A program made the translations under genes and the position numbers. From the NCBI GenBank assembly GCA_963782915.1, contig CAWALK010000018.1, positions 1,994 to 65,993 on the forward strand: a DNA stretch of 64,000 nucleotides, given 5' to 3'. The stretch is from an uncultured archaeon (GTDB lineage: Archaea; Thermoproteota; Bathyarchaeia; Bathyarchaeales; Bathycorpusculaceae). Shown here piece by piece: positions 1,763-25,558 of the stretch (its first letter is position 1; the number at the start of each line of letters is the position of its first letter). The notes beneath the pieces are model-generated. The model was not told where the DNA came from. It saw only the letters and a list, made by a program, of their open reading frames with translations, and did no database searches.

Positions 1763-1840
1763 GGGTCCGTAGCTCAGTCAGGCTAGAGCATCGGACTTTT
1801 AATCCGGGGGTCGCGGGTTCAATTCCCGTCGGACCCGCCA
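1763..1840 (+). tRNA. tRNA-Lys (UUU), CCA encoded; provirus integration target
   Basis: Acceptor GGGTCCG/CGGACCC, anticodon loop CTTTTAA, T-arm GGGTTCAATTCCC, G73-CCA. Confidence 0.97.
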
Positions 1841-3661: not shown

Positions 3662-3664
3662 GAA

Positions 3665-4231
3665 TTGGAAGCTAAGACGACTTTGCGTGTACCTGACTTC
3701 ATGAAGCCTATTCTTGAAGACATTAGGCTTTTGCGCTCAGATGGAAACAACCCAAACAGGATGACGAACAAGCAAAAAGAGGAACTGTGGAAAAGCCTAG
3801 AGGAGTTTGGCTGGACTGACCCCATCCTCACAAACCAAGATGGCGTTTTTACTGATGGGGAGCAACGGGTTAGCGTCTGCATTGCCCATGGAGAGTTTTA
3901 TGCGCCAGTATATCGCATGAATGACCTTTCCGAGGTACAGCGGCGCCGACTCAGATTGATCGCCAACGAATTGAAGGGCAAGCACAACAAAGAACTGGAA
4001 GAAGAGGAGTGGCAGCGCATTATCGAGTTAGGACAACGCGAAGAGCTAGAGTCTTTTCTTGATTCGATTGGGGAAAAGCTGCCTGAAACATTAAGGGATG
4101 AACACGAGAAGGTTTCCATTATCCCTGAAACTTACGAGTTAATTGTGGAGTGCAAAGATGAAGCCGACCAGAAAGCCAAGTTAGAGGAGTTGCAGGCCAA
4201 GAGTTGGAAGGTTCGGGTTCTAAATCTTTAG
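3665..4231 (+). CDS. ParB/Srx N-terminal domain protein
   Basis: NPNRM...LWKSLEEFGWTDPILTNQDGVFTDGEQR...RLRLIANELKG. Confidence 0.8.
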   Translation: MEAKTTLRVPDFMKPILEDIRLLRSDGNNPNRMTNKQKEELWKSLEEFGWTDPILTNQDGVFTDGEQRVSVCIAHGEFYAPVYRMNDLSEVQRRRLRLIANELKGKHNKELEEEEWQRIIELGQREELESFLDSIGEKLPETLRDEHEKVSIIPETYELIVECKDEADQKAKLEELQAKSWKVRVLNL

Positions 4232-4243
4232 GAGGCTTCGAGG

Positions 4244-4994
4244 TTGGATTTTGATTTTACTCACCGGTGGCAGGCTGGCAATTCTTTCCGTGAAGAAGCC
4301 GTTAAAGGCACCTATGACCTCAAGGATGTCAAGTTGGAGAAGCGTATCTGCGGAAGCCTTCCAATTGAGGGTTTGAATTGGCAGATCGGCGTTATAGTCG
4401 GGTCCAGCGGCAGCGGAAAAACCAGCATAGCCCGCCATCAGTGGCCTGAGGCTTACTTTGCTGATTTAGCGGGAGCGCTATAAGCAACCTTGTTTTCTCA
4501 ACGATTTCCCACCTGAGCTAAGCATCAAAGACATCGAAACTGCCCTATGTAGCAGCGGATTTAGCGAGCCGCCTTCTTGGCTGAAAAGCTATGCCGTGCT
4601 AAGCCAAGGGCAAAAGATGCGTGTGGATGTTGCCCATGCGCTTTGTCTTCCCCAAAACTTGGTTGTCTTCGATGAGTTCACAAGCACCGTGGATCGCACT
4701 GTCGCCCAAATCGGCAGCTATGCGATTAGCCGCGCCGTCCGAAAGCATCCGGGTAAACAGTTTATCGCCGTAACCTGCCATTTTGACGTGCTAGATTGGC
4801 TTGAGCCTGACTGGGTTTATGATGTGGACGCTAACGTTTTTTGGGATTACACGGGCACATTGCAGGAGCACAAGACGGCTTTTGGAACCCAAGTTAGGAG
4901 TGTAAAAAAAAACGACGTCACCCGCCAATCAACTTATCAGTGCATAGGTGCAACCTTGCCATGTGGCAGGTGTTTAGGGAACATCACTATCTAA
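4244..4994 (+). CDS. Soluble ABC-type ATPase (COG2401-like), probably fused or coupled to the downstream GNAT (frameshifted)
   Basis: Walker A GSSGSGKT, signature LSQGQ, Walker B VVFDEFTS, H-loop VTCH. Confidence 0.85.
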
Positions 4995-5395
4995 ACACTA
5001 AGGCTCTTGGGGCTGGCGTGCGATGTTATGTCGCCAAATATGGGGATAAACCCATTGCGTTTATTGCAGTTGCGAATGTGCACATGAAGGTGCAGTATTA
5101 TCGGGTCAGTCGGCTTGTTGTCCTGCCAGATTATCAAGGTATTGGCGTGGGTAGGCGGCTGCTGGATTTTATGGCGGACCTCTACACACGGCAGACTAAA
5201 CGTCCTTTCTATATTGTAACAAGCAATCCTCAGCTTGCACGTGGCTTGGCGAATTGGAAGGTTAAGCGGTTTGGGCATGGCAGTTCGGGAAGAAGTAACA
5301 CAAGAATAAATCGGGGGCTGGTTAAAGCGAACAGTAGAGGGCGCTTGACATTCACATTAAAGTATGTTCCAAAGATGGGAGCGCCTAAACAATGA
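4940..5395 (+). CDS. GNAT-fold acetyltransferase
   Basis: EHHYL...RVSRLVVLPDYQGIGVG acetyl-CoA binding motif A. Confidence 0.85.
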   Translation: MHRCNLAMWQVFREHHYLNTKALGAGVRCYVAKYGDKPIAFIAVANVHMKVQYYRVSRLVVLPDYQGIGVGRRLLDFMADLYTRQTKRPFYIVTSNPQLARGLANWKVKRFGHGSSGRSNTRINRGLVKANSRGRLTFTLKYVPKMGAPKQ

Positions 5396-5450: not shown

Positions 5451-5969
5451 ATGGAACCTGAGTTGTTTAAGCGTCGCCAACGAATGCTTCGGCTTATTGG
5501 CCGTCGGGAACTCGCTAAGCGCTATTGTGCAGACTTTAAGTGCGGAGTTTCAATGTTCAGCGAATGGGTAATTTACAAAGATCATAAACGGATGAAAACC
5601 TGGGTCGCATGCTTTCGAGCAAGATGAAGCAGTTGACTTCTATTCTGCGGGCGCGGTTGGACTTCTTGAATCGTGAAGCCATGGGTCTTGCTAACTGAAG
5701 GCGGCGACAAGAAGCCGCTAAGCGTCAAGGACAAGTTTGTGAAGATTGGTGCTCTAAATACTGCTCTGAAAATTACGGTTGAGCAAATTAAGGTTGGGCA
5801 GGAACTTGGGTTGATTGAGAGAAAACCCGAAGTTATTCAATCAGCGGTTAGTTTGGCTATGCCTTTTGAGGCGTCGCCTGAGATTAAGGCTGCCTACGCC
5901 AAATTTGCTGAAGCTCAAAGGGCTGACAAGGATGCCACTACAAAAGCTGAATCTGACGCCGGGCACTGA
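5451..5969 (+). CDS. Putative terminase small subunit (HTH; frameshifted)
   Basis: HTH-like N-terminus (SEWVIYKDHKRM) and helical C-terminus; overlaps the start of the large terminase. Confidence 0.55.
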
Positions 5970-7202
5970 TTTTCTGCGGTATGCTCCGCATCCTGCCCAG
6001 CTTCCTTTTCACGCTGGCAAAGGCATCTATAGTCAACGGGCTTGTCTCTGCGGAACTGGGTCGGGAAAGACAAAATGCGGGTTAGCTGAGGATATTCGTT
6101 GGGCGCTGGATTATCCTGGGAGCGTCGGCTTCATTTTTGAGCCATCTTACCCAATGATGAAGCGTATTCTATTCCCAACTTTGGAGAGCAAAGATTTCTT
6201 TGGTTGCCGTTATCCGTTTACGCAGAATCCCTATGTGGCGGACTTTAACCGTGGGGATATGCGGCTGGATTGGTTTAACGGTTCGCAGTGGTGGTTTGTC
6301 TCGCTGGATGATCCAGAAAAGGCCGAAGGTCCTAACGTCGATTATGCGCATATTGATGAGGCTCGGCTTGTTCGCCACTTCGATACTGCGTGGCTTACTG
6401 TTGTGCGTAGGCTTCGCAAAAGTGGCCGCTGCATGGTTCCAATTAACCCAGGCATTTGGCTTACAACAACGACCGATTCTCCTGGCAGCCCTTTGTATAA
6501 TATCACGGAGAACCCTGAGACGAATTCGCCTAATATGCGGATTTACCGTTGGAGCATCTTTGAGAACCCAACCTTGCCCAAAGAATTCTTGGCGGAAATT
6601 GTGCGAACCCACACCGGCGGCTTAGCTGACCGCTTTATCTACGGCAAATTTGCCACTGTCGCCGCGGGTAGCTTGCCCTTTGACTCTTCAAAGCATATTC
6701 GGGAGTTGACTGATAAGGCGTTGATTGATAGGGTTAGCTTTGGCGTTGACTTCGGTTGGAGTGCACCCTCGCGCTATTGTGGTGAACGCTTTTGACCCTG
6801 ACGGCAGAGCCTACGCAGTGGATGAGTTCTATAAACGGGAAACGACAGATGAAGAGTTAGCCGAGGCAGCCAAAGACTTGCAAGAGGAATGGGGTGAGGG
6901 AACGTTTTGGTGTGATGCCCGCTTTCCCCAGTCAATTTTGAAGCTTTGCCGTGCAGGTTTAGACGCTAAGCCCTATACTTTCAAACGTGAAGATGGGTTG
7001 CGGGAGCTTGGAAGCCGCCTAACTCCTGCGAGTGATGGGAAGCCCCGCCAGTTTGTAAGCAAACGTTGCGTTAACCTGATTAGTGAATTGTTGGAGTATC
7101 GGGAAGACGTCAAAGAAAACGACCATGCGACTGGATGCTTTGCGGTATAGTTTGCCACTTCAGTTAGAAGAGAAGCCGTTTTTGTATGTTGTTCGGCGCT
7201 AA
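5932..7202 (+). CDS. terL: Terminase large subunit (frameshifted)
   Basis: PHPAQ Q-motif, Walker A GTGSGKT, Walker B YAHIDEAR, nuclease GVDFGWS and ENDHATDALRY. Confidence 0.93.
7041..7202 (+). repeat. Terminase 3' end, copy A (repeated at 10935-11093)
   Basis: attagtgaattgttggagtatcg...gttcggcgc is present twice. Confidence 0.95.
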
Positions 7203-7217
7203 GGGACTGTCGCAAAC

Positions 7218-10200
7218 TCACTTGTAGGTCCATTTACCGATTATTTTTTGGGGAGGCAAACGCACTGTGAACGTTGTGCCATTTCCTTCTATGCTTTCAA
7301 AAGTTACTGTTCCGTTTAATGCTTCAGTCATGCGCTTAACCACTGCTAACCCTAAGCCTTGACCTTTAGATTTTGTCGTGAACAATGGAGTGAAAAGCTT
7401 CGGCTTAACTTTATCAGGGATGCCTATACCGGTATCTTGAACAGTGATGACTGTGTCTTCTGCATCCAGATGCGCCCTCATGGTTAGTTGGCCTCCATTT
7501 GGCATCGCTTGAACGGCGTTAGAAACCAGATTCCCAAGAATGCGCTTTAATATAATGCTGTCAACCACAATTGTTTTAACAGGTCGTCTCGATATTGCAC
7601 GAAGCCTTGATGTTTTTAGGCATGTCTTTTCCTTGGAGCAAATTCTGTACAAAGGCTTCCAAGTCAATTTTTTGAGTTGCAGGATTAATCGTCTTAGCGT
7701 AATCTTGAAGGTCAGCTACAATCTTGTTAATGTAATCAACGTTCTTTTCTATCTCTTGCAGGCTTTCTAATACACTCTTTTTTTCTTCACTATCGGGTGT
7801 TGAATCCAATTCTGTTTTAGCCAAGTAAATGTCGCTAGTGATAGCCTGTAGTGGATTGCGAATATCATGCCCAACCATTCCAGCCGTCTCACCTATGGCA
7901 GCCATTCGCTGAGCCCTCTCAAGTTTTTTCCTATCATCAATATCAACAAAGGACAAAACGGCGCCATCTATCCTGTCGTCTTGCGTTATGTAGGGTCGAA
8001 TTTGCATTTCAAAATAATGACCTTTCTCATCTTTTACTTCTCTGGTGAAATAGCTTAGTTTAGAAAATACTTCTGAAATTATTTCGCTCAAGTCGTCAAC
8101 TATAATGTTCAGTTTGATGGTCGTTATTGGTAATCCAACTGTTGCAGGTGACAGATTCAGAGTTTTCTGTGCTGAAGGCGAAAATAGCCTAATCTTTAGA
8201 CTCTTATCGATTATGACAATAGCTGGACCCACGTTCCTATTTATGTTGGTTAAGTCATCGTTCAGCTGAGAAAGCGTTTGGTTTCGGTTCTTCACCTCAT
8301 CATTCAACGTTTTCAATTCTTCATTGCTAGACTGAAGCTCTTCTTTAGCTGTTTCCAACTCTTCGTTTGTGCTCTGCAACTCCTCATTACTCGACTGCGC
8401 CTCCTCCATAGTGGTTCTAAGCTCTTCGTTGGTTGCTTCCTGAGTTTCAATAATCCTCTGCACAGTTTGTTTAGTTGACTCCAATTCTTCCCTGAGCTCT
8501 CTATTTTGGCGGTCCTTAAGGTTTTCTCGACCTTCAGGAGAAATATTTAATTCCATCGTTTGGCGTAAAAGCTTCGCAGCTGAACTTACATCTTCGAATA
8601 ATAGAAGGAAAAACGGTGCCTCATACCGTTCAACATGTATGGGAACAACTTGTATGTTAACTGTTCTCTGTTCTCCAGCATATTCAAACCGCACGGCATT
8701 CTCTTTGACAACTTTTTTCTCTTTTTTTGCCCTATAAATTATCGTTTCGACTTCAGACCTTAACTCTTTGCGAATAATTTTAGCAAGGTTCAAACTTGCT
8801 AATCCAGATTCGGGCAATACATATGATGCTATATTTCCTCGAAAAATTAGAACATCCAAATCAACATTAACTAGCAAGGCGGCAGGAACATACTCGGTGA
8901 CTAACAAACGGTCAACCTCGTCTTTCAACTCTGCAAGGACATCTTTTCTGTCGGCTGCTTTACCTTCTTTAGGTTTAAAATATGGCGTTGATGCTTCCAG
9001 ACCAAAAGTGATACGGGGCGGTGCGATCTTCTTCGTGTAGATTGCAGCCCTTTTTGCTTACAGATTCAAATAATTGAGTGAATTTTCCAATACTTTCAGA
9101 TTGCCCTAAGACCAAAAAGCCACCTATTTTTAAGGCGTAATGAAGAGTCGGCACTACTTTTTCGTGTAGTTGTTCGTCAAAGTAAATGAGCATGTTGCGG
9201 CAGCTGATAAGATCCATGTTAGAGAATGGTGGGTCTGCAGTTATGTCTTGCTTTAGCGAAAACACACATATCTCGAATATTTTTACAGATCTGATAATGT
9301 CCGTTGAAGCTTGTGAAGAAATGTTTTAGTCGTTTTTCGGGTAAGTCGGTTTCTATAGTTTTTAGGTATATTCCTCGTCTTGCTTTTTCAACGTTTCTTT
9401 CGTTCACGTCCGTGCCGAAAATTTGAACCTGAATATTTGTTATGGATTTTTCTTCGAGGAACTCTTGTAGTGCAATTGCGAAGGAGTAAGCTTCTTCACC
9501 TGTTGAGCACCCTGGAATCCAGACACGAATGGTTTCATTGGGCGGGCGGTTTTTCACTAATTCTGGAAACACCGTTTCTTTCAAAGCTGTGAATGTTTCA
9601 GGTTCTCTAAAAAAACTTGTCACTCCGATTAGCATATCGTTGTATAGTGCTTCCAGCTCGTTTGGATGCTTCAGCAGGTACTCTGCGTAATCAGCCATTT
9701 TTTTAATGTTGTTGATAACCATTCGACGTGCGATCCGCCGATTTACGACGGTTTCTTTGTAGTGTGAGAAATCCACCTTGAAACTACTTTTTAGCATAGT
9801 GAATATTGCTTTTAAGGGTGTTCCCAATTCTAGCTTTGCATCATTTGGTTCAGTATCTTCTCTTGACGCGATTTCGCTTCGTGCTAGTTGAGGGTTATAG
9901 CGATTTTTTGTAGTTGTAAGGCCATCTGGTCTGGAGATAGAACAAAATCTGCAGCTTCGGCTGTAATGGCACTTTGGGGCATGTCACCATACTGGGCAGA
10001 ATTTGGAGTTTGTGCGAAAGTGATGCCTCCTTGAGCTTTGATGGCTTTTAGACCTTCAGTTCCATCAGAGCCTGTTCCCGAAAGCACGATACCTATACTA
10101 TGATTTTTCGAGTCCTGGGCCAGGGAAGCAAAGAAAGCGTCAATTGGTTTAACCGAAGACGTACCCTTTGGGTGAAGGGTGAGTAACTTGTTTTCCATGG

Positions 10201-10552
10201 TCAAGATAGTTCCGGACGGAATCACGTAAATATGGTTTGGTTCAACTGGTATCTTATCTTTCACTGTTTGGACGTGCATTTTGGTTAATCTTGAAAGAAT
10301 GTCGGATAGCATGCTTTCTTGGCCAGCCGCAAGATGCTGGATAACAACAAAAGACAAGCCGGTATCTGTTGGTAAATATTCTAGCAGACTTTTGAATGCA
10401 TCTAAGCCGCCGGCTGAGGCACCAATTCCAACTATGGGAATACCTTGTTTGTCTTGGTCAGAAGATTTCTTATTAGAACGCTTGGCTGCTTTTTTTTGGT
10501 TTTCGGGAATTTCGTTCCCCCCCCCCACAAAAGAATTGAAAGATGCCATCAA
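7218..10552 (-). CDS. CheB-CheR-PAS-histidine kinase fusion, copy 1 (frameshifted)
   Basis: CheB GASAGG/QH/SGTGSDG; CheR WIPGCSTGEEAYS, DLISCRNMLIYFD; EELQSTNEEL coiled coil; PAS; H-box GHDIRNPL; HATPase NLVSNAVQA, DTGIG, TTKSKGQGLGL. Confidence 0.9.
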
Positions 10553-10856
10553 GATACTCCAGATGAACAGTGGATATAGTGATGTACTGGCTACTGCATA
10601 AAAGGTTTATGCGTACGGTAAAGTAGTTATTTTTTCTCTGTTTCGCCCCAAATATCTATCGCAAAGCTGGTTAGTGCCCAATGCCATCCTCGCTTCTCCG
10701 CTATCTGTTCTTCGAATTGCTTTTCTAAGCGTTTGTTCATTCTAAGGATTCTACGGCTTATCTGGGGCGAGTGACTTTAAAACGCTCAAGCTCAGCCCAT
10801 ATATCTTTTGGGCAACAGACCTGGAGAGGCTGCCACATAGGGGATTCGCACATAGG

Positions 10857-10940
10857 CTATATGTTAATTCTTATAAACTGACTTGATGATAGGGCTATTT
10901 TGTGTAGGCAGCTCTGGGGAAAGCGGTAAGCTTTAACCTC
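10857..10940 (+). repeat. Truncated copy of the head-operon promoter/leader (full copy 11933-12018 and beyond)
   Basis: ctatatgttaattcttataa...gatagggctattttgtgtaggcagctctggggaaagcggtaagct is present twice. Confidence 0.95.
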
Positions 10941-11093
10941 GTTAGTTCTAGTAAACGCTATGTTAATGTAATTAGTGAATTGTTGGAGTATCGAGAAGAT
11001 GTTAAGGAAAACGACCATGCGACCGATGCTTTGCGGTATAGTTTACCGCTTCAGTTAGAAGAGAAGCCGTTTTTGTATGTAGTTCGGCGCTGA
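10935..11093 (+). pseudogene. Orphan terminase C-terminal fragment, copy A'
   Basis: Encodes ISELLEYREDVKENDHATDALRYSLPLQLEEKPFLYVVRR*; no start codon or upstream ORF. Confidence 0.9.
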
Positions 11094-11340
11094 GGCATAA
11101 GTTGCCCTAGTGATTTTGCTTATTGCCTGTTTTACCTTTTAGAGCCTTATAAAGAGCTTCGAGCTTTCTTCAAATCCTTTTGCCTCGGCACCTTACGCCG
11201 ATTCGGCAAAGAATGATTGGTTGAAATACCACTTGTATATAATTTAGCCACTAAACCCAAACTTTTTATGGTGCTAGAAACAATAGCAAAATGTCATATC
11301 TTTAAATAATATAATCCAGTTGAATTTCTGAGGTTTTTCT

Positions 11341-11607
11341 GTGCATAGAAATGAAGCTGTTGACTTGCTAAAAGAAATACTTGAAAACTGCATAAACATT
11401 ACACAATACGGCATCGCCATTATGCCACCTAACTCCAATGACGTAATGTCAAAAAATTTTCAAATACACGTATTTGGAAATGTTAACAAGCTTGATACCT
11501 CATGTTTAGAGTCCATTATGAAAAAGAGTTGCTTGCAACTAAAATTAATACAGGAAAAGAACCTACTTGTGATATATCGACCAATGAAACCTGAAAGCGA
11601 CTGTTAA
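11341..11607 (+). CDS. Small hypothetical protein, paralog of 11618-11845
   Basis: MHRNEAVDLLKEIL...LLVIYRP. Confidence 0.7.
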   Translation: MHRNEAVDLLKEILENCINITQYGIAIMPPNSNDVMSKNFQIHVFGNVNKLDTSCLESIMKKSCLQLKLIQEKNLLVIYRPMKPESDC

Positions 11608-11617
11608 CTTCTTATCC

Positions 11618-11845
11618 TTAGACTAAAGCCTTCCTGTGAAAAATAACGATAGAGTCGCCTTCTTCCTTAACGTCCAAGTTACGCTTTTTGGCTACAGCCT
11701 TAATGAGTTGAGTATCTTTGGTTTTGATTCTAAGGATGGATAGTTTGGTTTCATCCTGTCGCTCAATAGAAACAGAATCCGGCGAAAGGTTAATGTCTTC
11801 ACCCAAAAGTGCCTTTAGGTAATCTATCGCGTCGTTTCGGTTCAT
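11618..11845 (-). CDS. Small hypothetical protein, paralog of 11341-11607
   Basis: MNRNDAIDYLKALL...SIVIFHR. Confidence 0.7.
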   Translation of the reverse strand: MNRNDAIDYLKALLGEDINLSPDSVSIERQDETKLSILRIKTKDTQLIKAVAKKRNLDVKEEGDSIVIFHRKALV

Positions 11846-11933
11846 TAATACCTAATTTAAGTATGCTTGTCTGTTCATTTAAGACTTGTTATGAGCACCA
11901 ATTTGAAAATTTTTGTTTTAGCCCAGCGTTGAC

Positions 11934-11951
11934 TATATGTTAATTCTTATA
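11934..11951 (+). promoter_or_regulatory. Putative viral late promoter of the head operon (TATATGTTAA-ttc-TTATA)
   Basis: Motif shared with 3332, 10858 and 20589. Confidence 0.65.
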
Positions 11952-11986
11952 AGGCTGATTGTGAGTGATAGGGCTATTTTGTGTAG

Positions 11987-12072
11987 GCAGCTCTGGGGAA
12001 AGCGGTAAGCTTGACCTCTCCCCGGGGCTGCGGGCTTGCCTTTTCCCCATGGGTTGACCGAAATTTCGGGTC
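11987..12072 (+). other. Structured 5' leader of the head operon
   Basis: 13-bp stem GCAGCUCUGGGGA/UCCCCGGGGCUGC (2 G-U pairs) enclosing an AAGC-GGUAA-GCUU hairpin; second hairpin at 12056-12072. Confidence 0.5.
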
Positions 12073-12081: not shown

Positions 12082-12945
12082 TTGAGTGAAGGTTTGGGCT
12101 GTGGGAAATGCAAGCGAGTTCATGAGCAGATAGCTCAGATTCTGCCTTTTCGGGTGCTGGAAGCCGCTGAGGGTAAGCCATTGCGGATTGCAGGCGTTGC
12201 TATGACTGCGGGCATGTCCCGTAACCACAACGTTTACACTTCTGAAGAGTTGGAGGCTTTTGCTCCTAAACTTGTCGGGGCACCCATCTATCTTGAGCAT
12301 GTCACCGTTGAATCAGCCATTGGAAAAGTTACTAACTGCGTTTTTGATGCCCAATCCAAGAGCTTGCGGTATGAAGCGGAGATTTACGACCCAACTATGG
12401 CTGAGAAGATCCGTCAGGGTTTGATTCAGCATGTGAGTGTTGGGGCAGACTACGATGCACTTGATACAGCCAACGTGCCGCATGGGTTGCATAACGCGGA
12501 GATGTCGCTTGTTGCAGTGCCCGGTATTCCCGAAACCAACATCCAAGTTTTAGAGGCTTTACGACAGAAGGGGGTTGGGGGTTTGGAAGAAAAAGACATT
12601 GAAAGTGTCGCTGAGAAAGTCGCTGCTAAGATCGGCGAGAAAAATTCCCTTGAAATTGAGGGTCTGAAAACAAAGCTTTCGGAAGCGGAAGGTAAGTTGG
12701 CGGCTTCTGAGGGTAAACTTGCCGAAGCCAACAGGACAGTTGAGCAGCTAAAGCAGCTTGTACCCGGTGTGGACTTGCTGAAGAATCCGCCTAAACTGAT
12801 GCCTGTCTCTGAAGCTGTCAAGATGGTTAAGGAAGCACTGCCTGCGCCAATGATTCAGCGTTCATGGGGACTTGGCCCTCAACGCATGTGTCAGGACCTG
12901 CAGCGTGTCGTCCAGAAACTTGAGACTAGGGCTGGTGGCAAGTAA
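12082..12945 (+). CDS. Prohead maturation protease with scaffold-like coiled-coil C-terminus
   Basis: GVAM...SRNHNVY...PIYLEH...HVSVG...EMSLVAVPGIP; coiled coil follows. Confidence 0.85.
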   Translation: MSEGLGCGKCKRVHEQIAQILPFRVLEAAEGKPLRIAGVAMTAGMSRNHNVYTSEELEAFAPKLVGAPIYLEHVTVESAIGKVTNCVFDAQSKSLRYEAEIYDPTMAEKIRQGLIQHVSVGADYDALDTANVPHGLHNAEMSLVAVPGIPETNIQVLEALRQKGVGGLEEKDIESVAEKVAAKIGEKNSLEIEGLKTKLSEAEGKLAASEGKLAEANRTVEQLKQLVPGVDLLKNPPKLMPVSEAVKMVKEALPAPMIQRSWGLGPQRMCQDLQRVVQKLETRAGGK

Positions 12946-13158
12946 ATGGCTGAGAAATCTGCCGAGGGAAAACTCCACGAAGTCGATGACACAGAAGCTG
13001 ACGCCGTTATCGAGTTTGCAAGCAGGGCAATTCCTCATAACGAGATGCTTGGCCGTGTTGTCCGCAATATGTACAAGCGGATTCAGCAGTTAGAAGCCCA
13101 AGTTAAGGACCTGCAAGCGAAGCCCAAAAAGGCTGCCGCTAAAGTTGGAGGTCCATAA
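12946..13158 (+). CDS. Small head-module hypothetical protein
   Basis: Abuts the protease stop codon; coiled-coil C-terminus. Confidence 0.55.
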   Translation: MAEKSAEGKLHEVDDTEADAVIEFASRAIPHNEMLGRVVRNMYKRIQQLEAQVKDLQAKPKKAAAKVGGP

Positions 13159-13236
13159 GTTTTGCTCACTTTTGTGGGGCTAGTAGCGCCAGGACGAACT
13201 GGTGTGAACGCAGAAACAATAGGGAGATTGATTTAG

Positions 13237-13662
13237 ATGACTGATTTAACTGGAAAATCTTGGATGGCTATAGGCGAAACTGACGATCCAAACGCTGTTA
13301 TAGAATCTTTTGAAGCGGCTGCAGGCATCACCAAAGGCTCACCGGTTTACTTGAGTGCAGACGATAAGGTTTCCGCCAGCCCAGGCGGAGACAACGCAAT
13401 AGGAATTGCAGTGAAAACCGTTTTGACTGGTCAACAGTGCCCAGTGCTAACCCGTGGGAGAGTCAAAGTGACGGCTGGCGGCGCTATAGCAAGAGGTACA
13501 GCGGTTTGCAGTGCTGCTGCTGGCAAAGTGATTCAACTTGTCGATCAAGCTGTTGACGAGGGCGGCGCTGCGAAATACACAATTTTCTTCAACCGCAAAC
13601 TTGGCTATGCACTAGAGACTGCTGCGCAAGATACCGACCTGCTGTTTATTGAGGTGGGATAA
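13237..13662 (+). CDS. Capsid cement/decoration protein (DUF2190-like)
   Basis: AAAGITKGSPV...AIGIA...VLTRGRVKVTAGGAIARG; directly upstream of the capsid gene. Confidence 0.75.
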   Translation: MTDLTGKSWMAIGETDDPNAVIESFEAAAGITKGSPVYLSADDKVSASPGGDNAIGIAVKTVLTGQQCPVLTRGRVKVTAGGAIARGTAVCSAAAGKVIQLVDQAVDEGGAAKYTIFFNRKLGYALETAAQDTDLLFIEVG

Positions 13663-14615
13663 TGAAGCCCAAACTCTACGAGTCATTGATGCAGAAAGAC
13701 GCTGGATTCAAAGAAGTCATGGAAAAACTCAAGCTGAAAACTGACCATCCATTCCTAAAGCGCTATGCGCTTATGGGTGTGAAGGAAGGCTTTTTCAGCG
13801 ACATGTCAGGCGCTCTTGGCAGAATGCATGATACGATGGTTGATGCTGCATGGCCTGAATTGATTGGCCGTAGCATAATCAACGTAATGCCAACCAACGA
13901 AGCCATGGAACGCTTCCCAATCGATGCAGGCGCAATTGCTTACGAATACGCTGAAGGCACTATTACCCGGCTCTCAGGCAAAAAAGCCTCAACTGTTGAC
14001 ATCAACGCAAACATTCTGGCAGACTCTTCAGATGAGTGGACAAGGGAATACCTTGAAGACGCATCTTGGAACGTCATGGACCGTGCAACACAGAACATCG
14101 GCAACGCTTTAGGAGTTAAAGAAACCGAGAAGATTCTGGCACTATACACTGCTGTTTTAGCTGCTGACTTAGCTACTGGCGCAGACCTTGCAGGCGGCGG
14201 TACTGTGATGAGTTGGACAAAACTGCTTAGCTTGTGGCATGCTGTTAAGTCTGAGAAGCGAAGAGCAACTGTTATCGCCCTAAACGATATGCAGGTTGCA
14301 CAACTCCTCAACGATAGCACTTTCACAAACGCACAGTCTTTACCCTCAGCACAAACCGACCTCGAAGCCGGCGTTGTCAGTGGCGCTTTGGGCATGAAGA
14401 TTGTTTCAAGCCCACTTGTCACCAACGGTGTTGCATTCGCCATCGATACACGTGTTGCCTCCGCGATGCTTCTGCGCCGAGACGTAACTGTCGAGGACTG
14501 GGAAGATGTCAAGAACGGCAAATACGGTGTCAGAGCCACAACTCGCTTCGGCTTAGGCGTCCTAGATTCCAAAGGCATTGCAAGAATGACAAACATCAAG
14601 ACGACAATCACTTAA
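13662..14615 (+). CDS. HK97-fold major capsid protein
   Basis: Size, position and C-terminal LLRRDVTVEDWEDVKNGKYGVRATTRFGLGVL pattern. Confidence 0.88.
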   Translation: MKPKLYESLMQKDAGFKEVMEKLKLKTDHPFLKRYALMGVKEGFFSDMSGALGRMHDTMVDAAWPELIGRSIINVMPTNEAMERFPIDAGAIAYEYAEGTITRLSGKKASTVDINANILADSSDEWTREYLEDASWNVMDRATQNIGNALGVKETEKILALYTAVLAADLATGADLAGGGTVMSWTKLLSLWHAVKSEKRRATVIALNDMQVAQLLNDSTFTNAQSLPSAQTDLEAGVVSGALGMKIVSSPLVTNGVAFAIDTRVASAMLLRRDVTVEDWEDVKNGKYGVRATTRFGLGVLDSKGIARMTNIKTTIT

Positions 14616-14631
14616 GCGGTGCATTCGCCCG

Positions 14632-14649
14632 TTTTTCTTCCCCTTTTTT
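14632..14649 (+). terminator. Possible oligo-T terminator after the capsid gene
   Basis: tttttcttcccctttttt pyrimidine tract shortly after the stop codon. Confidence 0.35.
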
Positions 14650-14680
14650 GGGTTATCAAATCATATCGGGGTCTAAGCAT

Positions 14681-16018
14681 ATGAGTAGCGTTTACAGAAA
14701 AATCCGTGAGGTCCTCTCCTATGCGCCTGTTTCAGGCGTGGCAAAGCCAAATGGCAGAGTGTTCTTTGATACTTCCTGCATTCCCCTAATTGATGTTATG
14801 AAGCTCTATGAGCGTGACCCAACCTGCAAGGCAAGCGTGGATCTGTTGGCTGCCTCCACAGTTGGCATGGGCTTCTACACTACCGTGGACGAAAACTATG
14901 ATAAGGCTAAAGAAGCCAAAGCCGCCGTGGATAATTTCTGCGAAGACATCAACTTGGACGGCTTGCTAAACGATATGGCTAAGCCGCTGATTGGCTGCGG
15001 AAACGATTTTTGGCTTAAATTAACTCCTGACAAACTAACCGAAACCTTGCGCATGCCCATAGATGCAGTGCAACGCATCGGGCTCAGTAGTGTTCCCAAT
15101 CTATAGCTTACCCTACAAAGTCACAGGTTATCAACTCAAGAACATTCCTATCGCGGGCAAAGCTCGAGAAATGAGCTTAAACCTGAAGCGGTCATTCACT
15201 GGCGCCTTAACGGCGATATTCCCTCTGGCTACGGCGTTGGCTTGCTGCAGGTGCTTTTGCACACGTTAACCGTTGATTCGGATAAGCGTCCGGCTGTTGC
15301 TTGGATGAAAGCCAAAATCGAGCGCATAATGCCCAAGATTTTTGAGAAGTATGCGGGACCTGACGTTTTGGCGATGTTGGAGGGCGTCGATGAGGCAACG
15401 GTGAAGTCGTTTGAGCAGGCCATCAAGAATCGGGATGAAGAGGGCGCTTGGCTATTCTACAACAAAAAAATCGATTTAAAGCCTGTCACGATTGACCCCC
15501 GAGCACAGGGCTTTGTTTACTACATCGACCACATCATTAATCAGTTCTATTTGGGCTTGGAAACGCCTCTGCCACGGCTTTTTAGCACTCCAGGCTTTAC
15601 CGAAGCATCGGCAAGGGCAGCGTTGGACTTGCAGGATATGCTCATAAAACCCGTCCAACGCTACATCAAACGTCAAGTAGAACGGGAACTTTTCTCGCCT
15701 ATTGTTGCTCAAGCTGGACTTGATTCGATTAAGGCTAAGGTGCGGTTGAATTATGGCAGCCCCGAAACTCCAGAACTTAACTCTGCTGACCTCATCAAAG
15801 CCGCTGAAACTGGGTTGATTCGAGCAGAGGAGTTCCGTAAGAACGCTATCAAGTTTGGCTGGGAACTCTGGGAACAGAAGCCTACCGCGGCGACAGGGCA
15901 ACAGCAGACGGTTAGTCTTGAGGGTTTGCATGGAAGAAAAGGCGCAGGCAAGTATCTTGTGGTGGATTTAGGGAAGAATGAGGAGTCTGCTAAAGTTGAG
16001 TCTACTGGGAATAGTTAA
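14681..16018 (+). CDS. Portal protein (frameshifted)
   Basis: LYERDPTCKASVDLLA...GMG; HWRL...GYGVG; LGLETP...EASARA...IKPVQRYIKRQVE. Confidence 0.8.
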
Positions 16019-16517: not shown

Positions 16518-19500
16518 TTACCGTTTAGCTCTTGGGGGGAAACGTAAAATGAATTTTGTGCCTTTGCCTATTTCGCTCTCGAAAGTTATTTTGCCGCCTA
16601 ATGCCTCAGTCATGCGCTTGACCACTGCTAAGCCAAAGCCTTGACCCTTCGATTTAGTAGTGAAAAGCGGAGTGAATAGTTTTGGCCTAATTTCTTGTGG
16701 GATACCAACACCTGTATCCTGAACAGTTATGACAATATCGCCAGCATCCTTGACCGCATGAATATCAAGTTTTCCACCCTGCGGCATAGCCTGAACTGCA
16801 TTACTTACCAGATTACTTAAAATTCGCTTCAACATAGCTGGGTCAGCAATCGCCTTTTTCGCTTCTTTCTCGACTATGCATGAAGCGTCAATGTTTTTTG
16901 GAATACCATTATTAAGCAGCACTTCTTGGCAGAGCGCTTCAACATCTGTTTCCTGAACGGTTGGCTTGAGTGGCTTTACAAAGTCTTGTAGGTCTTGAAC
17001 AATCTTGTTAATGTACTCAACATTCTTCTCAATGCCTGCTAAACTTTCTTTCATGCCCTCTTTTGCTTCGCCTTCAGGCATCGAAGCTAAGTCAGTCTTA
17101 GCCAAATATACATCACTGGCAATTGCTTGCAAGGGATTACGAATATCATGCCCAACCATACCTGCAGTCGCGCCAATAGCTGCTAAACGCTCGGAGTCTT
17201 TGAGTTGACTTGGTTCGTTCTTCAACAAGCTTCTCCAAGTTCTTAGCATATTTATCAAGTGCCTCTTCAGCTTTTTTGCGTTTGGTAATATCTGTGAAGG
17301 ATAAGAATGCCCCGTCAATTTTCTTGTCTTCAGTTAGGTACGGTCGAATCCGCATTTCATAGAAATGGCCATCCAAACCCTCAACTTCTTGACTAACAGG
17401 AGTTAACTTATCGATTACCTCCGTTATCATCTTATCCAAGTCTTGAATATGAACTCCTGGAGTTATGTTGGCGATGGAGCCCCCAACATCGGATGGCGAA
17501 ATTCTCAAAAGTTCTTGGGCTGCAGCAGTGAAACGCCTTATCCTCAGGCCACTATCAACGATAACCACTGCGATGTCAATGTTGGTTTGCAGATTTGCTA
17601 AGTCATCATTTAGGCGACCAAGAGTCTGATTGCGGTTCTTAAGCTCCTCATTTAAAGTCTGCAGCTCCTCGTTGCTTGACTGCAACTCCTCTTTAGCTGT
17701 TTCGAGCTCTTCATTTGTGCTCTGCAACTCTTCATTGCTCGACTGAACCTCTTCCATAGACGACCGCAACTCCTCATTGGTTGCTTCCTGCCCCTCAACA
17801 AGCGTCTGCAAAGACTGCTTAGTTGCCTCCAAATCCTCCCTAAGCTCACGAATCTGACGATCCTTAAGACTCTCTACCTCGCACAGGCGAAACTGGAGCT
17901 TCAACTTCGTTGTCTTGAATGCAGATCATTTGAACGGTGTTTCGGTAAACAATACAAGGTAGAAAGGTTCGTCGTATTTCGGTGTTTCTAATGGTCTTAT
18001 CTCTATGCTAACTGTTTTTGGTTGCCCTTTTTGTTTAAGCGCACCGTTTCTTTGAAGGCTTTCTTTTCTTTCTTTGCTCTATAAATGGCAGTCTGAATTT
18101 GTGACCTCAATTCTTTTCGAATAATCTTTGTTACGTTAAAACTCGCCGCTCCTGATTCAGGTATAAGATAAGGAGCAACATCTCCACGAAAAACCAGTAT
18201 ATCCAAGTTATTGTTTACCAACAAAGTCGCTGGACCATACTCTGAGGTTATAAGATGGTCAACTTTATCCCCTAAAACAGTCAGCAGATCTGCTTTTTCA
18301 ATGCGGTTTAACTGATCTTCTTCGTAGCAGTGGAATAAAGGCTTCATTAAACAACATGTTGTGGCTGGGCTTGCTTCTTTCTGTAAATTAAGCCTTTTGT
18401 AGTAATTGGTTCAAACAAGTATTGGAATTTGCCAACACTTTCAGATTCTCCCAAAACTAGAAAACCATTGGGTTTTAATCCGTAATGGAAAATTGGCAAT
18501 ACTCTTTCGTGAAGATACGAGGTCAAAATAGATGAGAACATTTCGGCACATGATGAGATCTAAGTTAGAGAAAGGCGGATCGCTTGTTATGTCCTGCTTT
18601 GCAAATATGCACATGTCCCGGATGAGTTTTGTGATTTGGTAATTTCCGTTTTGCCTATTGAAAAAACGTTTTAGTCTATTTTCGGAAACGTATGTCTTCG
18701 ATAGTTTTTGGATATATTCCTTGACGAGCTTTCTCAATATTCTTTTCATTCGCATCCGTACCAAAAATTTGAACCCGTATCTCAGGCATGACTTTTTCTT
18801 CTAGGAATTCTTGAATTGCAATGGCTAAAGAATAGACTTCTTCGCCTGTTGAGCACCCCGGAACCCAAACACGGATGGATTCATCGGGTGACCTGTTTTT
18901 GATAAGTTCAGGAAAAACTTTTTCCTTCAAAGCCTCAAAAGTTTTTGGTTCTCTAAAGAAACTTGTCACGCCTATTAGCAGATCATCAAACAAGGCCTGA
19001 GGCTCATTTGGGTGGGTCCTGCAGATACTCGATGTATCCTTTCATGTTTTTGGTCTTATTTATGACCATGCGACGTGTAATGCGTCGGTTTATGGTTGTT
19101 TCTTTGTAGTGCGTAAAATCTACCCCGAAAGAAGTTTTTAGCATCATTATAATTTTTTTCAAGTCAGATTCTACTTTTTCTGGTTTGGTGTTTTTGTTTC
19201 AGAAGGAATGAGTTGAGGGTGATGGGCGATTCTCACTAGTTCTTTTGCTATCTGTTCTGGGGAAAGGATAAAATCGGGGTTTTCGGCATGCTATGGCGTT
19301 TTGGGCATGTCGGGGTATTGCGCTGTCTCTGGGTCTTGTGCGAAGGTTATTCCGCCTTCAGCTTTAATTGCTTTTAATCCTTCGGTTCCGTCATTGCCAG
19401 TTCCTGACATGACGATTCCAATTGCTTGGGTTTTTAGTTCCGAAGCTATGGAAATCATAAAGTCGTTGATGGGTTTAAGAGCTAAACCTTTGGGAACAAG

Positions 19501-19833
19501 CTTTAGGCAACCGTTCTTCAGCGTCATTGTTGTTCCTGGAGTGATGACGTAAACGTGGTTTTTTTCAACTTTCATGCCATCTGTTACTTGGAGAACCTTC
19601 ATTTTGGTTGACCGTGAAAGGATTTCGGGCAGCATGCTTTCTTGTCCAGTAGCTAGATGCTGGATAACAACAAATGACATACCCGTATCAACGGGCAAGT
19701 TCTCTAGCAGTTTCCTGATGGGGTCTAATCCGCCTGCAGAAGCGCCAATCCCAACAATCGGAAACTCATACGCTTTACCTTTGCCTTCAAGGGAAGCAGA
19801 TTCATCGAAAGTAGTTTTTATTTTGCTTGCCAT
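16518..19833 (-). CDS. CheB-CheR-PAS-histidine kinase fusion, copy 2 (frameshifted)
   Basis: Same domain order and motifs as copy 1 (GASAGG, GCSTGEE, EELQSTNEEL, GHDIRNPL) but clearly divergent in sequence. Confidence 0.9.
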
Positions 19834-20651: not shown

Positions 20652-21005
20652 TTGGCTGCGGTTACGGTTGAGGACGTTTGGGATACTCTGAATGTTGGCG
20701 ATTCGGATATTTCTGAGGCTAAAGTTCTCAAGATGATTAAGCGTGCCGAAGTGACTTTAGAGCTTGAACTCAACGTAGAAATTGACTATGCAAACTGTTC
20801 GGATGCCAAAAAGGAAGCTATAACGGTTTTGGCTGCTATGTATGCGCTGTGCTTCTTGACTGGCGGGTCAACTGTTGGGTTGAACTTTAGCGTGGGTGAC
20901 CTCAATGCTAGTCAGTCTTCGAAGTTGCCAAGCTTCGATGTGCTGCAAGGCGAGTTTTCCCGTCTGCTAGACAAGCTAAAAACGCCCTACATTGGGAGGG
21001 CTTAG
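20652..21005 (+). CDS. Head-tail connector (gp6/gp15-like)
   Basis: VTVEDV...SEAKVLKMIKRAE...helical core and GLNFSVGDL hairpin; first gene of the neck operon. Confidence 0.7.
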   Translation: MAAVTVEDVWDTLNVGDSDISEAKVLKMIKRAEVTLELELNVEIDYANCSDAKKEAITVLAAMYALCFLTGGSTVGLNFSVGDLNASQSSKLPSFDVLQGEFSRLLDKLKTPYIGRA

Positions 21006-21008
21006 CCC

Positions 21009-22634
21009 ATGGGCACGGTTCCAGATGCCTACTTTCAGTTTGTGATGCACTATGCGCCCTACTACTACGTTGTTCCCACTAACTTGGCTGCGGATGCGGC
21101 TGCTGGGCAGAAAAACGTAACTGTTGCGGACGGTTCGAAGTTTCAAGCTGATTTTCCCGTTGAAATCAAGGATTCCGCCCATAGCGAATGGAGCGAAGTT
21201 GAAAGCGTTCTTGGCAACGTTGTAACCCTCAAGAACAATCTAGCCAACAGCTACTTTATTGCAAAGGCTGGGTTGATGGAGGGTCCTGACCCTGCGTTTG
21301 GTCGTGGCACTTTTGCCGCTGCTTTCGCCATCGAGTTTCTCTGTGAAGCCTACTCGGCCCCTCAATTCTCAAGCCAACAAAGCAGACATACTCGCCAAAA
21401 TTGTGGAGTTAGCCGATTGGCTGCTGACACAGCAATGCATCGACCCTGCGAGGACTGCGTATGGCGGCTTCAAAAGCGGGGAGTCATCGACTGACTATTG
21501 GAGTATTGATGCTGGCAGGGCTATTCCTGCATTGCTGAAGGCTTACGCCGTGACGTCAACGGCTGCCTACTTGGACGCGGCTAAGTTGGCGGGCTACCCT
21601 TTCCTGTACAACATGCAGCGTCTACCCGTGGTTTTGGGTTTGCATGACCGCTACTATGGCGGCTTTGCTTCCTACGTTACCATCGGTGACGGCTGGGAGG
21701 CGTCGATGTATGTCGAGAACCTCTATTGCCTCATAGGCTTAAAGATGCTCGCCGACACCTACGATACCGCCAACGCTCCAACCTACAACAGCGGTGATGA
21801 GTGATGCGGTTGCTTTCCTTCGGGACGGTTTGGAGGGGCTTTGGCTCTATTTCTATCCGTTGCCCTCTGGGGATGGCGCTTGGCACCGGGTCGGCTTGAA
21901 TAACACCGAGGTTTATGATGACCCGATAAGCTTCGCCCTGCTTGGCTTGTACACTTATGAGGGTTGGACGGCTAGTTGCCAACGTGTCTATAACGCCGTG
22001 CAGAGCATCAAGGCAAGCGGCCAGTATCCCGCCTATGTTCCTGATGTCTGCTGGCCTGGCTACATAGACGTGGTTTCAAGGTTTCCCGCCTGCAGCTACT
22101 ATGACGGCGTCACGATTGGGATTCTTTGGAAAATCCGCAAAGACCGCGACCCTCCAGGCTACAAGTTAGCCCACGACATCGCTGAGAAGTACGCTGATGA
22201 ATTCATGGATTGGGGACCAATCTTCACCGACTATAGCCCAATTACGCCTGCCAAAGCTATGGCGAACGTAAGCTGGATCGCCCGAATGTTTCTCAACTAC
22301 ACGGAACCATCAACGCAATTCACTAAAGATACTCAAAAGCAAGGGTGAAGCGGTTCTGCTTTATCCAGTGCGGCAAGCTGTGGAAACCGTTGATTACGGC
22401 GACCCTCTTGAATTGCTCGCCGTGGTTTCTCAGCTTAAAGCTGAACAGGTTCTCATAGAGCCCGGGTACTACACAAATGACTATTTGGCGTTCTACACGT
22501 TTCTGCCCGTGCGCAGTCACGACAAGATAAGGCGTCAAGGCGAGGACTACGAGGTGCAGACTGTGTCGCCTTTTGCTTTTGCTAATCAGCGGCTCTACTT
22601 CAAGAGCACGGCAAGGAGGCTGCTTACCAGTTGA
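21009..22634 (+). CDS. (alpha/alpha)-toroid glycosidase-like domain probably fused to a C-terminal head-closure domain (frameshifted)
   Basis: LADWLLTQQ...YGGF...IDAGRAIPALLKAY helical repeats; removing one A near 22330 joins QFTKILKSKGEAVLL...DKIRRQGEDYEVQTV. Confidence 0.55.
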
Positions 22635-23631
22635 GTGAGTTAGAAGACCCCGTAGCTACCTTGCTAAGGCTGATTAATTCGCGAATTCGAGTTACCAAAG
22701 ATAATGGCGAGGCTGCTAAGTTGTTGGCTTCTGAGGCAGCGTTTGACCGCGAACTTTTGCTCAAAGAATATGATGCCCAAATCACCCTCCAAGTAGACCC
22801 TGTGTTGGGCGTTCAAGACCAAAAACTCAACCTGTCTGGCAGCAAAAGACGTCAGCTGCATTTCTTCAAGTGCACGGTCCACTCTATCGATAAGACTGCT
22901 CCCGGTTCTGACGCGGGCAGAGTCATGCGAAACAAGGTTACTGAGCAGATTAAAGCGATTATCCGTGAGAACCGAACCTTGCCCTATGAGACGGCTTATA
23001 ATTTTGCTGGGCTCGGCTATCCATCGGGCGACCCACATAAGGCGTATGCTGCAGGTGCCGCCTCAGAGTTGGCGCCGTCTAGTGGCTTCTTGGGCTGAGC
23101 TTTCTGCCGTGGATTATCAGGGCATTTGGTACAGTGACGATGTCCATTACTCCAAGAGCGTAGCCGTCAACAATCAGTATGGCTTGATGCTGTTTAGGTT
23201 CAAGGTTGGGCCAAGAGAGCAATGCATCAAGTCTTTGGTGCTGAGCTTCGAAGGCTACGGTACCGCTCCCGGTGGCAACGGTGTAACTGTCAAAGTTTGG
23301 AATCATATGGCGGGTGCTTGGCAGTATCCACAGTATGGAACCGCAGGCACAGACGAAACCCTGACAATCCCGATTTCGGCGAACTGGACGGATTACGTGG
23401 ACTCTGATGGCTACGTTTGGATGATTGCCAGAACCACAAACCCAAGCAACGGCGTAACACCCGCCGTGCTCTACTGCGACTATGTGCAGTTGACGGTTCA
23501 GGTTCGTGGAATCACTAACTGCGATGTCGTAAGCTACAAGCCCATCAGACATCGTTGAGGTTAAGCCGTTTCTCTTCAAGACGGAACTTGTTTTGAAGGG
23601 TTGGGCTTTCGAGGAAATAACTTTAGGCTAA
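22631..23631 (+). CDS. Tail terminator-like protein with inserted beta-sandwich domain (frameshifted)
   Basis: N-terminal EDPVATLLRLI...RVMRNKVTEQIKAIIREN and C-terminal KPFLFKTELVLKGW flank a beta-rich insert. Confidence 0.5.
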
Positions 23632-23647
23632 CGGAGTATGGAAAAGA

Positions 23648-24518: not shown

Positions 24519-24527
24519 GGTGAGAAA

Positions 24528-24704
24528 ATGGAAGAAGTGAAAGTGGAAGACTGGCTTAAAATATGGGAGAAAATAGGCGTTCGTCTCCTTCAGCTTCCGA
24601 AGTGGATGCAACAAATCGTACTTGAAGACATCAACACAGCCATCAATAACAGACTTGCAGTAATGGAGGTAATCTACAACGTACACAGAAAAAATAAGGA
24701 TTAA
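24528..24704 (+). CDS. Small hypothetical protein (58 aa)
   Basis: MEEVKVEDWLKIWEKIGVRLLQLPKWMQQIVLEDINTAINNRL; preceded by GAGGTGA ribosome-binding site. Confidence 0.55.
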   Translation: MEEVKVEDWLKIWEKIGVRLLQLPKWMQQIVLEDINTAINNRLAVMEVIYNVHRKNKD

Positions 24705-25204: not shown

Positions 25205-25558
25205 CATTTGACGTTCAAGGCGTGGACGAATTCGTTGCGGCAATGCAACGCCTAGATAGCGGCTATGCAGGAGAGAGTCCGCGCTTGGCTCTACGATTGG
25301 GCACAGCGAGTAGTTGATGAAGCCAAACGTAACGCTCCTGTACGCACGGGCTATCTTCAAAGCAAAATCTACGCCATGGCTCAAGAATGGGTCGTGGAAA
25401 TTGGGGCAGGGGCAGCCTACAGCTACTTTGTTGAGTTCGGGACCCGCTACATGTCAGCCCACCCGTTCCTTTACCCTGCAGTGCAAGCGTTTCTCCCAGA
25501 GCTAGAAACTAACATTATCGGTGCTATTGAGCAGGCAAAAGCGGAGGCTGGATTGTGA
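25189..25558 (+). CDS. HK97 gp10-like tail-completion protein (frameshifted)
   Basis: AKRNAPVRTGYLQSKI...YFVEFGTRYMSAHPFLYPA. Confidence 0.85.

Follow-up and report, generated by a model that had tools for sequence, protein, structure and literature searches.

Fusions of the methylesterase CheB with the methyltransferase CheR form a widespread family (KEGG K13924) whose members run CheB_methylest-CheR_N-CheR-PAS_10, often with HisKA-HATPase_c at the end. Their CheB has no receiver domain and they are encoded outside che operons, and in the literature we searched the family occurs in annotation lists only, with no functional study. The catalytic domains are homologous to those of CheB and CheR from Salmonella and E. 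coli (PDB entries 1chd, 1a2o, 1af7, and 1bc5), with the same Ser-His-Asp triad and the same S-adenosylmethionine (SAM)-binding motifs. Here, we describe a gene of this kind, HK1, in a 64,000-nucleotide (nt) stretch of DNA from an uncultured archaeon of the Bathyarchaeia (GenBank assembly GCA_963782915.1, contig CAWALK010000018.1, positions 1,994 to 65,993; hereafter the window). HK1 has the same domain order, and it too pairs a receiver-less CheB with a position outside any che cluster; unlike canonical CheB and CheR, both of its enzymes are fused to a PAS kinase, and unlike the known K13924 fusions, it is carried within tailed proviruses. The reading that we favor, with moderate confidence, takes HK1 for cargo (a "moron") that a family of temperate head-tailed viruses of soil Bathyarchaeia obtained from their hosts and that would confer lysogenic conversion by way of a sensor kinase.

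In this assembly HK1 is spread over five minus-strand open reading frames (ORFs), overlapping or abutting, which three-frame translation joins into one gene with four frame changes. The 1111-amino-acid (aa) protein is thus a product of stitching only and corresponds to no single ORF here. An intact ortholog in G014, a closed genome (OY970286.1) of another species of the same genus, served for the indel map.

7218-10552, minus strand: HK1, a CheB-CheR-coiled coil-PAS_10-HisKA-HATPase_c sensor kinase, 1111 aa stitched (Pfam, PDB alignment, indel map against the G014 ortholog)
9884-10552, minus strand: HK1 piece with CheB
8975-9827, minus strand: HK1 piece with CheR_N/CheR
7576-8928, minus strand: HK1 piece with the EE-heptad coiled coil, PAS_10, and HisKA
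7218-7667, minus strand: HK1 piece with HATPase_c

Pfam searches with the five pieces recovered CheB_methylest (PF01339, 2.9e-55), CheR_N (PF03705, 2.6e-13), CheR (PF01739, 2.5e-30 and 1.4e-16 for its two halves), PAS_10 (4.8e-20), and HATPase_c (8.8e-29); HisKA scored 26.0 bits, slightly below its cut-off of 26.9. No PF00072 receiver was found by Pfam in the protein, and no NCBIfam model reached its cut-off with the fusion. The CheR domain follows directly behind CheB and matches the CheR structures 5ftw, 1af7, and 1bc5, and residues 868-1092 align to the ZraS kinase core (9jfj). The Ser, His, and Asp motifs of CheB (GASTGG, QHM, and GNDG) match those of the Salmonella CheB chain 1chd. In an alignment of 12 archaeal (Bathyarchaeia) and bacterial relatives, the bacterial members standing at 41-43% identity, the triad (S39, H66, and D156) is invariant, as are the SAM-site motifs of CheR (WxxGCSTGEExYS, D375, and CRNxLIY). 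An acidic NEEL-heptad coiled coil precedes PAS_10, and its six S/T-x-x-E-E-x-x-S/T heptads (alignment columns E694-E737) are invariant in archaea and bacteria; they fit the methylation-site consensus of chemoreceptors. The kinase boxes can be read in the translation as H (GHDIRNPL), N (NLVSNAVQA), G1 (DTGIGI), F, and G2 (GQGLGL). With the same catalytic residues and the same EE-heptad coiled coil as the bacterial K13924 proteins, HK1 is, judged by its sequence, an ordinary member of that family. A first-pass annotation, made from the letters of the window, had described an antisense gene of about 1100 aa in which the CheB, CheR, and kinase motifs are all retained; the Pfam matches, the 1chd alignment, the 12-sequence alignment, and the translation bear this out.

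HK1 lies inside a tailed provirus of about 38 kb that spans from a tRNA-Lys gene (1763-1840) to an integrase-like gene (38655-40086), in the order ParB/ATPase-GNAT, large terminase subunit (TerL), HK1, protease, scaffold, capsid, a 443 aa gene, a second kinase of the same type (HK2), neck and tail genes, and accessory and replication genes. The tailed-virus genes (TerL, prohead protease, scaffold, HK97-type capsid, and tail, all assigned through PHROGs) are collinear. The order of the head and tail genes is kept in 29 contigs of IMG/VR, at 62-95% capsid identity, and the provirus therefore belongs to a real virus family. HK1 occupies a variable slot that extends from TerL to the promoter of the head operon and is antisense to the late genes. 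The placement between terminase and head genes given in the first-pass annotation is thus upheld, since TerL on one side and protease, scaffold, and capsid on the other are PHROG-matched and on the opposite strand. The landmarks used below are:

1763..1840, plus strand: tRNA-Lys(UUU), left provirus edge and candidate integration site (ARAGORN)
5815..7204, plus strand: TerL, in three frames here with two frame changes (phrog_2, 2.3e-22)
11933..12012, plus strand: head-operon promoter region B, the original of a copy B' (repeat analysis)
12082..16018, plus strand: head module (PHROGs)
16518..19833, minus strand: HK2, second CheB-CheR-PAS kinase, frameshifted here (CheB_methylest 6.3e-48 in piece 19291-19833)
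20652..28497, plus strand: neck and tail module (minor tail and tail protein PHROGs; 92% identical to provirus Y of G014)
38655..40086, plus strand: tyrosine-recombinase-like integrase, in several frames here, probable right end (tblastn with a 480 aa ORF of provirus Y)

G014 holds two relatives of this element, provirus X (locus L014) and provirus Y. Provirus X adjoins the same tRNA-Lys flank (529-2190 in the window, syntenic with the left flank of X at 76-84% identity) and matches window positions 3330-10933 at 96%, HK1 included; HK1 stands in the same slot there, and the sequence continues directly into the head promoter and the protease. Provirus Y matches positions 11925-28471 at 92-94%, HK2 included, and the slot that holds HK1 in X holds an unrelated 297 aa ORF in Y. 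HK2 is about 52% identical to HK1, and 93% identical at the nucleotide level to the copy in Y. Between the two genomes the provirus DNA, kinase included, is 92-97% identical, compared to 65-77% for host DNA, so the element with its kinase must have entered both species recently relative to their divergence. HK1 is carried between host species with the virus. At a further Bathyarchaeia locus, L025, the HK1 cassette (92-93% nucleotide identity) is inverted and found on the margin of a provirus with structural genes of no more than 66-69% identity, so the cassette moves between virus types as well. The recurrence of an intact HK1 in the same TerL-to-head slot, together with the difference between provirus and host identity, supports the first-pass description of the gene as virus-borne. 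That annotation had also allowed for a transposed host copy never found in other viruses, but HK1 is present in X and L025, and the HK2 type in Y and in another genome, G001.

HK1 is also under purifying selection. After projection onto the intact frame, the ratio of non-synonymous to synonymous substitution rates (dN/dS) between the window and X is 0.19 (54 synonymous and 37 non-synonymous changes), that of HK2 between the window and Y is 0.21-0.23, and that of chromosomal pairs is 0.12-0.15.

The frame changes of HK1 lie near 9897, 9255, 9045, and 7581 and are single-base indels relative to the G014 ortholog, which has an intact 1107 aa frame (G014:C1:2502154-2503566 within it, the gene as a whole at about 2500270-2503590) and is 97.4% identical in nucleotides over the gene and 98% identical in amino acids over the CheB-CheR part. 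Further differences are a pair near 7652/7642 that cancel each other out, an insertion of 3 nt that keeps the frame, and a G run longer by two G. As a control, G014 orthologs were used as probes on the host genes at 44-64 kb of the window. Six of 14 could be followed only by switching among two to four frames, with about 10 frame changes over some 15 kb (0.67 per kb), versus 17 in 20.9 kb of provirus genes (0.81 per kb). One of these host proteins, of 810 aa (53820-56241, minus strand) and presumably HdrA-like from its own sequence, has three frame changes and is 87-90% identical to its G014 ortholog. HK2 has four frame changes and TerL two, and most tail genes and the integrase are broken as well. 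Since host and provirus rates are similar, the breaks probably reflect the assembly rather than HK1. The close relatives of the source organism, itself a Bathyarchaeia metagenome-assembled genome (MAG), are long-read MAGs with "MFD" isolate names. Homopolymer error was considered for every HK1 indel and fits in part: there is a gain of two G within a G run and a loss of one A within a short run of A, but three insertions (+1 each) fall outside homopolymers. Most likely, the four breaks are consensus errors of a low-accuracy long-read assembly, and the real gene is probably intact. The inactivating indels that the first-pass annotation had kept in view are therefore not borne out by this comparison, given similar breaks in host genes and the intact ortholog. 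At about 0.7-0.8 frame errors in every kb of coding DNA, calling any gene of this genome a pseudogene is unsafe.

With regard to origin, we surveyed about 20 Bathyarchaeia loci with HK1 homologs at 61-96% identity. Several viral genes within 10 kb were found only at L014 (provirus X) and L025; at L019 the only viral signal is a short protease-like fragment, and L021, L022, L023, and L026 are syntenic on both flanks and thus vertical chromosomal orthologs. L019 (5632-9520), from another Bathyarchaeia MAG, has its chromosomal CheB-CheR kinase next to a further kinase-like ORF and to ORFs that we take to be KaiC and KaiB from sequence motifs. In a maximum-likelihood tree, the archaeal copies are one clade, and those from proviruses fall into two distinct clades with full support, both nested among the chromosomal Bathyarchaeia copies: an HK1 clade (window, X, and L025) and an HK2 clade (window, Y, and contig C4 of G001). 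A single clade of all provirus copies is rejected (approximately unbiased test, p = 3e-42), the grouping having been defined after the tree was seen. The G001 copy lies about 5 kb from capsid-gene remnants. In this copy (L070:8267-11527), PAS_10 is followed by a GAF domain and the gene stops within the H box, so it is either a kinase-less variant or truncated. The GC content of HK1 (41.4%) and HK2 (42.2%) is close to that of the chromosomal paralog on contig C19 (41.8%), while the flanking late genes are at 48.7-50.9%. From the nested clades, the host-like GC, and an upstream motif shared with chromosomal copies (described below), HK1 and HK2 are host-derived, with at least two captures from the host. 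The phylogeny against chromosomal homologs that the first-pass annotation had called for thus places the provirus copies among host genes and rejects a single clade for them.

The survey of archaeal proviruses suggested along with it gave a divided answer, with HK1 or HK2 types in X, Y, L025, and G001, but in none of the 29 related IMG/VR contigs. Within the genus, 24 genomes were covered; capsid genes are common in them, as are CheB-CheR kinases, and the two lie side by side in three genomes only, namely this one, G014 (two cases), and G001. Between the portal-sized 443 aa gene and the neck operon, the IMG/VR relatives have 0-5.3 kb, and the HK1 slot holds about 0.7 kb in one of them (L100). 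HK1 is therefore sporadic cargo in variable slots and not a core viral function.

Upstream of HK1, elements can be read that would suit independent expression.

10572..10612, minus strand: candidate HK1 promoter (read from the sequence)
10517..10526, minus strand: poly-G tract in HK1 codons 8-11 (sequence comparison)

A TATA-like ACTATATCC is centred about 27 nt ahead of the ATG, and a palindrome, GCATAAACCTTTTATGC (10596-10612, minus strand), precedes the start by about 45-60 nt. The core of the palindrome, CATAACCTTTTATG, is found also upstream of the chromosomal CheB-CheR relatives L015 and L018, and partly of L019; it may be a regulator binding site captured along with HK1. The poly-G tract has ten G in the window and in L025, which puts the conserved ATG in frame, and eight in the closed G014, which puts it out of frame. 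The difference is either a long-read homopolymer error or a phase-variable switch.

Whole-genome family searches for MCPsignal, CheW, and Response_reg gave no match on C18, the contig of the window, in agreement with the first-pass statement that the window has no chemoreceptor, CheA, CheW, CheY, or response regulator. The genome as a whole has five MCPsignal, five CheW-domain, and 17 receiver matches. A che cluster on contig C2 encodes a methyl-accepting chemotaxis protein (MCP), CheB with a receiver, CheW, and CheA, and a separate CheR-like gene is on C1. For CheF and archaellin, no family match was obtained in this 93.5%-complete genome, which makes a tie to swimming unlikely; from its gene content, the organism appears to have a chemosensory system (contigs C2, C15, C17, and C1) with no detectable archaellum. 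The idea of a viral receiver plugging into the archaellum switch is weakened by the same result. Such receivers do exist in the relatives, where a single-domain protein of 125-130 aa (PF00072, 58.5 bits) is encoded directly downstream of the kinase in both Y and L025:

G014:C1, about 1698704-1699081 (30919-31296 in the reverse complement of L011-L013): receiver behind HK2 in provirus Y
L025:13415-13807: receiver behind the HK1-type gene in L025

We also considered, and rejected, a swap of the L025 kinase core to the HK2 type together with its receiver: over the C-terminal 235 aa, identity is 70% with HK1 versus 66% with HK2, and the helix behind the phospho-His is identical to that of HK1.

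If the favored reading is correct, HK1 would be a soluble cytoplasmic sensor kinase whose PAS_10 domain senses an intracellular cue. The receiver-less CheB, together with CheR, would reversibly methylate glutamates and in this way set the gain of the kinase. The most likely targets would be the six invariant heptads of its own coiled coil, and the five MCPs of the host are the alternative. The kinase would then phosphorylate a single-domain receiver, virus-encoded in Y and L025 and host-encoded in the present genome. Its orientation antisense to the late operons and its host-type upstream elements suggest that HK1 would be expressed from the lysogen, where it would supply a sensor paralog missing from the chromosome, i.e., lysogenic conversion. 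The sole other full-length copy in this genome, the paralog on C19, is 58% identical, so the provirus would add a sensor type that the chromosome lacks. A more far-reaching proposal, which we regard as improbable, is that this virus lineage has its own two-component circuit, made of a self-methylating CheB-CheR-PAS kinase and a CheY-like receiver, whose readout of host state sets induction or reprograms the archaellum-less chemosensory network, with the poly-G tract as a phase switch.

Several observations weigh against HK1 as a conversion gene. Self-methylation, the promoter, and expression in the lysogen are all things that we infer from sequence only, and the first-pass idea that the virus rewires host signalling, or the choice between lysis and lysogeny, would likewise be an extrapolation from the genes seen. 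No receiver stands beside HK1 or HK2 in the window, where the 530 bp that hold the receiver in Y have no counterpart (between 16506 and 16533), and HK2 of Y is itself divided into two ORFs. The kinase is in 0 of the 29 related IMG/VR contigs. A pattern scan of IMG/VR, which used a few peptide patterns from a single protein or the 12-sequence alignment and was not exhaustive, found no kinase relative either. In metagenomes of the Joint Genome Institute, relatives reach 72-75% identity at best, and their surroundings contain neither a viral marker nor a receiver gene. Every provirus case traces back to MAGs from a single sequencing project. Finally, dN/dS of the provirus copies (0.19-0.33) exceeds that of the chromosomal ones (0.12-0.15).

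Some of these points would equally suit a neutral passenger, i.e., cassettes gained by illegitimate recombination in slots that tolerate inserts and persisting temporarily with no benefit to virus or host. Both slots do vary, the head-neck slot by the range noted above and the contents of X and Y from one to the other, the kinase is missing from most relatives, constraint is relaxed compared to the chromosomal copies, the window has no such receiver, and the HK2 gene of Y is in two parts. We nevertheless consider this explanation unlikely, if still a serious one, since a dN/dS of about 0.2 is far from neutral, the HK2 type has been kept in three proviruses diverged to 75% aa identity, the same rare architecture was captured twice independently, and the two kinases take up 6.6 kb of a capsid-limited genome of about 38 kb. 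A different use for the kinase, together with the adjacent receiver where there is one, would be to report host state and to tune maintenance of the provirus versus its induction, which is the second of the roles put forward in the first-pass annotation. The kinase and receiver pairs within the proviruses of Y and L025 would be in line with such a decision sensor, as would the antisense orientation of HK1 to the late operons and its own upstream elements, but no link to a repressor or antirepressor was seen, the receiver lacks an output domain and does not occur in the window, and the upstream motif is common to chromosomal relatives, which points to host-type regulation. We give this possibility little credence.

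It could also be argued that HK1 is a decaying pseudogene in a defective provirus, with real frameshifts and an element that is a mere remnant. The four frame changes each in HK1 and HK2, the two in TerL, the broken integrase and tail genes, and a hybrid structure with a TerL remnant (see below) would all fit, but frame breaks are similarly frequent in host core genes, the G014 orthologs are intact, and the substitutions are mainly synonymous, which makes decay quite doubtful. Least credible of all is an assembly or binning artefact that set a host kinase gene within viral sequence. The assembly does have many consensus errors and one non-homologous join, but the TerL-HK1-promoter B arrangement recurs in an independent closed chromosome, and a single contig of 267 kb contains the element together with host sequence on either side. 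HK1 as lysogenic-conversion cargo remains the reading that we prefer.

The join just mentioned lies between the two kinases, and sequence comparison shows the element to be a hybrid, since its left half matches X and its right half matches Y.

10857..11095, plus strand: junction B'|A' (repeats D1, D2, D4, and D6; junction read; synteny with X and Y)
11341..11845: second small cargo, two convergent paralogous ORFs, 11341-11607 (plus strand, 88 aa) and 11618-11845 (minus strand, 75 aa)

At the junction, a copy of the head-operon promoter, B' (10857-10941), abruptly gives way to A' (10942-11095), the 3' end left over from another TerL gene, and comparison with 7058-7204 and 11933-12012 shows scarcely any homology, if any, where the two meet. 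Either illegitimate recombination has stacked two cargo slots in tandem or, less likely, this is an assembly join. The small cargo fills the second of these slots, and both of its ORFs start with M(H/N)RN(E/D)A(V/I)D.LK (MHRNEAVDLLK on the plus strand and MNRNDAIDYLK on the minus strand), and the plus-strand ORF (11341-11607) has no Pfam match. In X, the HK2 slot (18104-22560 in the reverse complement of L014) holds different plus-strand cargo, including a 511 aa protein and an ATPase that we take to be ParA/MinD-like from its KGGVGKTT motif.

The remaining genes of the provirus are as follows.

3665..5395, plus strand: ParB-like gene and ATPase/GNAT gene (phrog_11143), front of the packaging operon (PHROGs)
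12082-12945, plus strand: prohead protease (PHROG)
13237-13662, plus strand: scaffold (PHROG)
13662-14615, plus strand: HK97-type major capsid protein (PHROG)
14648-16018, plus strand: 443 aa portal-sized gene, broken here (intact 443 aa ORF in provirus Y)

The order of the ParB-like and ATPase/GNAT genes is the same in IMG/VR contig L100, and an intact TerL ortholog of 444 aa is present in both X and Y. The 443 aa protein encoded behind the capsid gene matches no Pfam or PHROG family, and it is a candidate portal on the basis of size and position only. In the neck and tail module, the majority of genes longer than 250 aa are frameshifted here. The tail genes are followed by a low-GC (40.6%) accessory block (28500-36400) with a HAD-like hydrolase (29210-30091), an ORF that is presumably thymidylate-kinase-like from its sequence (30309-30983), and a protein with an Mrr-type restriction endonuclease domain (31463-32665), and behind the block lies a 595 aa DUF3631-like protein (36483-38270). 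The integrase piece at 39712-40092 has a weak PHROG integrase match, and no repeat of the tRNA-Lys region that could mark a second att site was found elsewhere in the window.

Tailed viruses of Bathyarchaeia, an abundant uncultured class of soil and sediment, are known almost solely from sequence, and in this one two 1100 aa kinases make up about 17% of a capsid-limited genome. The double capture, the spread between species, and the purifying selection argue that sensing capacity is a commodity traded among archaea and their viruses. The viral cassettes are compact, and the two with a neighboring receiver as candidate partner offer a handle on the function of CheB/CheR-fusion kinases in general.

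Signalling genes borne by phages are known from the VqmA receptor of vibriophage VP882 and from arbitrium, and the genome of the brown-alga virus EsV-1 encodes hybrid histidine kinases; the latter is a eukaryotic giant virus whose kinases have another architecture and, unlike HK1, no CheB or CheR domains. An exact-phrase literature search for phage-, prophage-, or virus-encoded histidine kinases returned no match. Head-tailed proviruses of Bathyarchaeia (BATPV1, BATPV2, and others) carry accessory genes (PMC11705971), and, as described, they are like the present element in host class, tailed type, and integrated state. Histidine kinase, CheB, CheR, and two-component genes go unmentioned in two surveys of archaeal proviruses (PMC11705971 and PMC13573593). 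HK1 shares with the morons or lysogenic-conversion genes of prophages a variable slot between late modules, an opposite orientation, a differing GC content, and a sporadic distribution. Unlike usual morons, however, the cargo is a two-component sensor kinase of 1100 aa, present twice, and in an archaeal virus. The protein family and the logic of the moron are already known, and what we describe is an extension and not a new principle; the novelty lies in the combination of a lineage of tailed archaeal viruses with two CheB-CheR kinases and, in relatives, a receiver.

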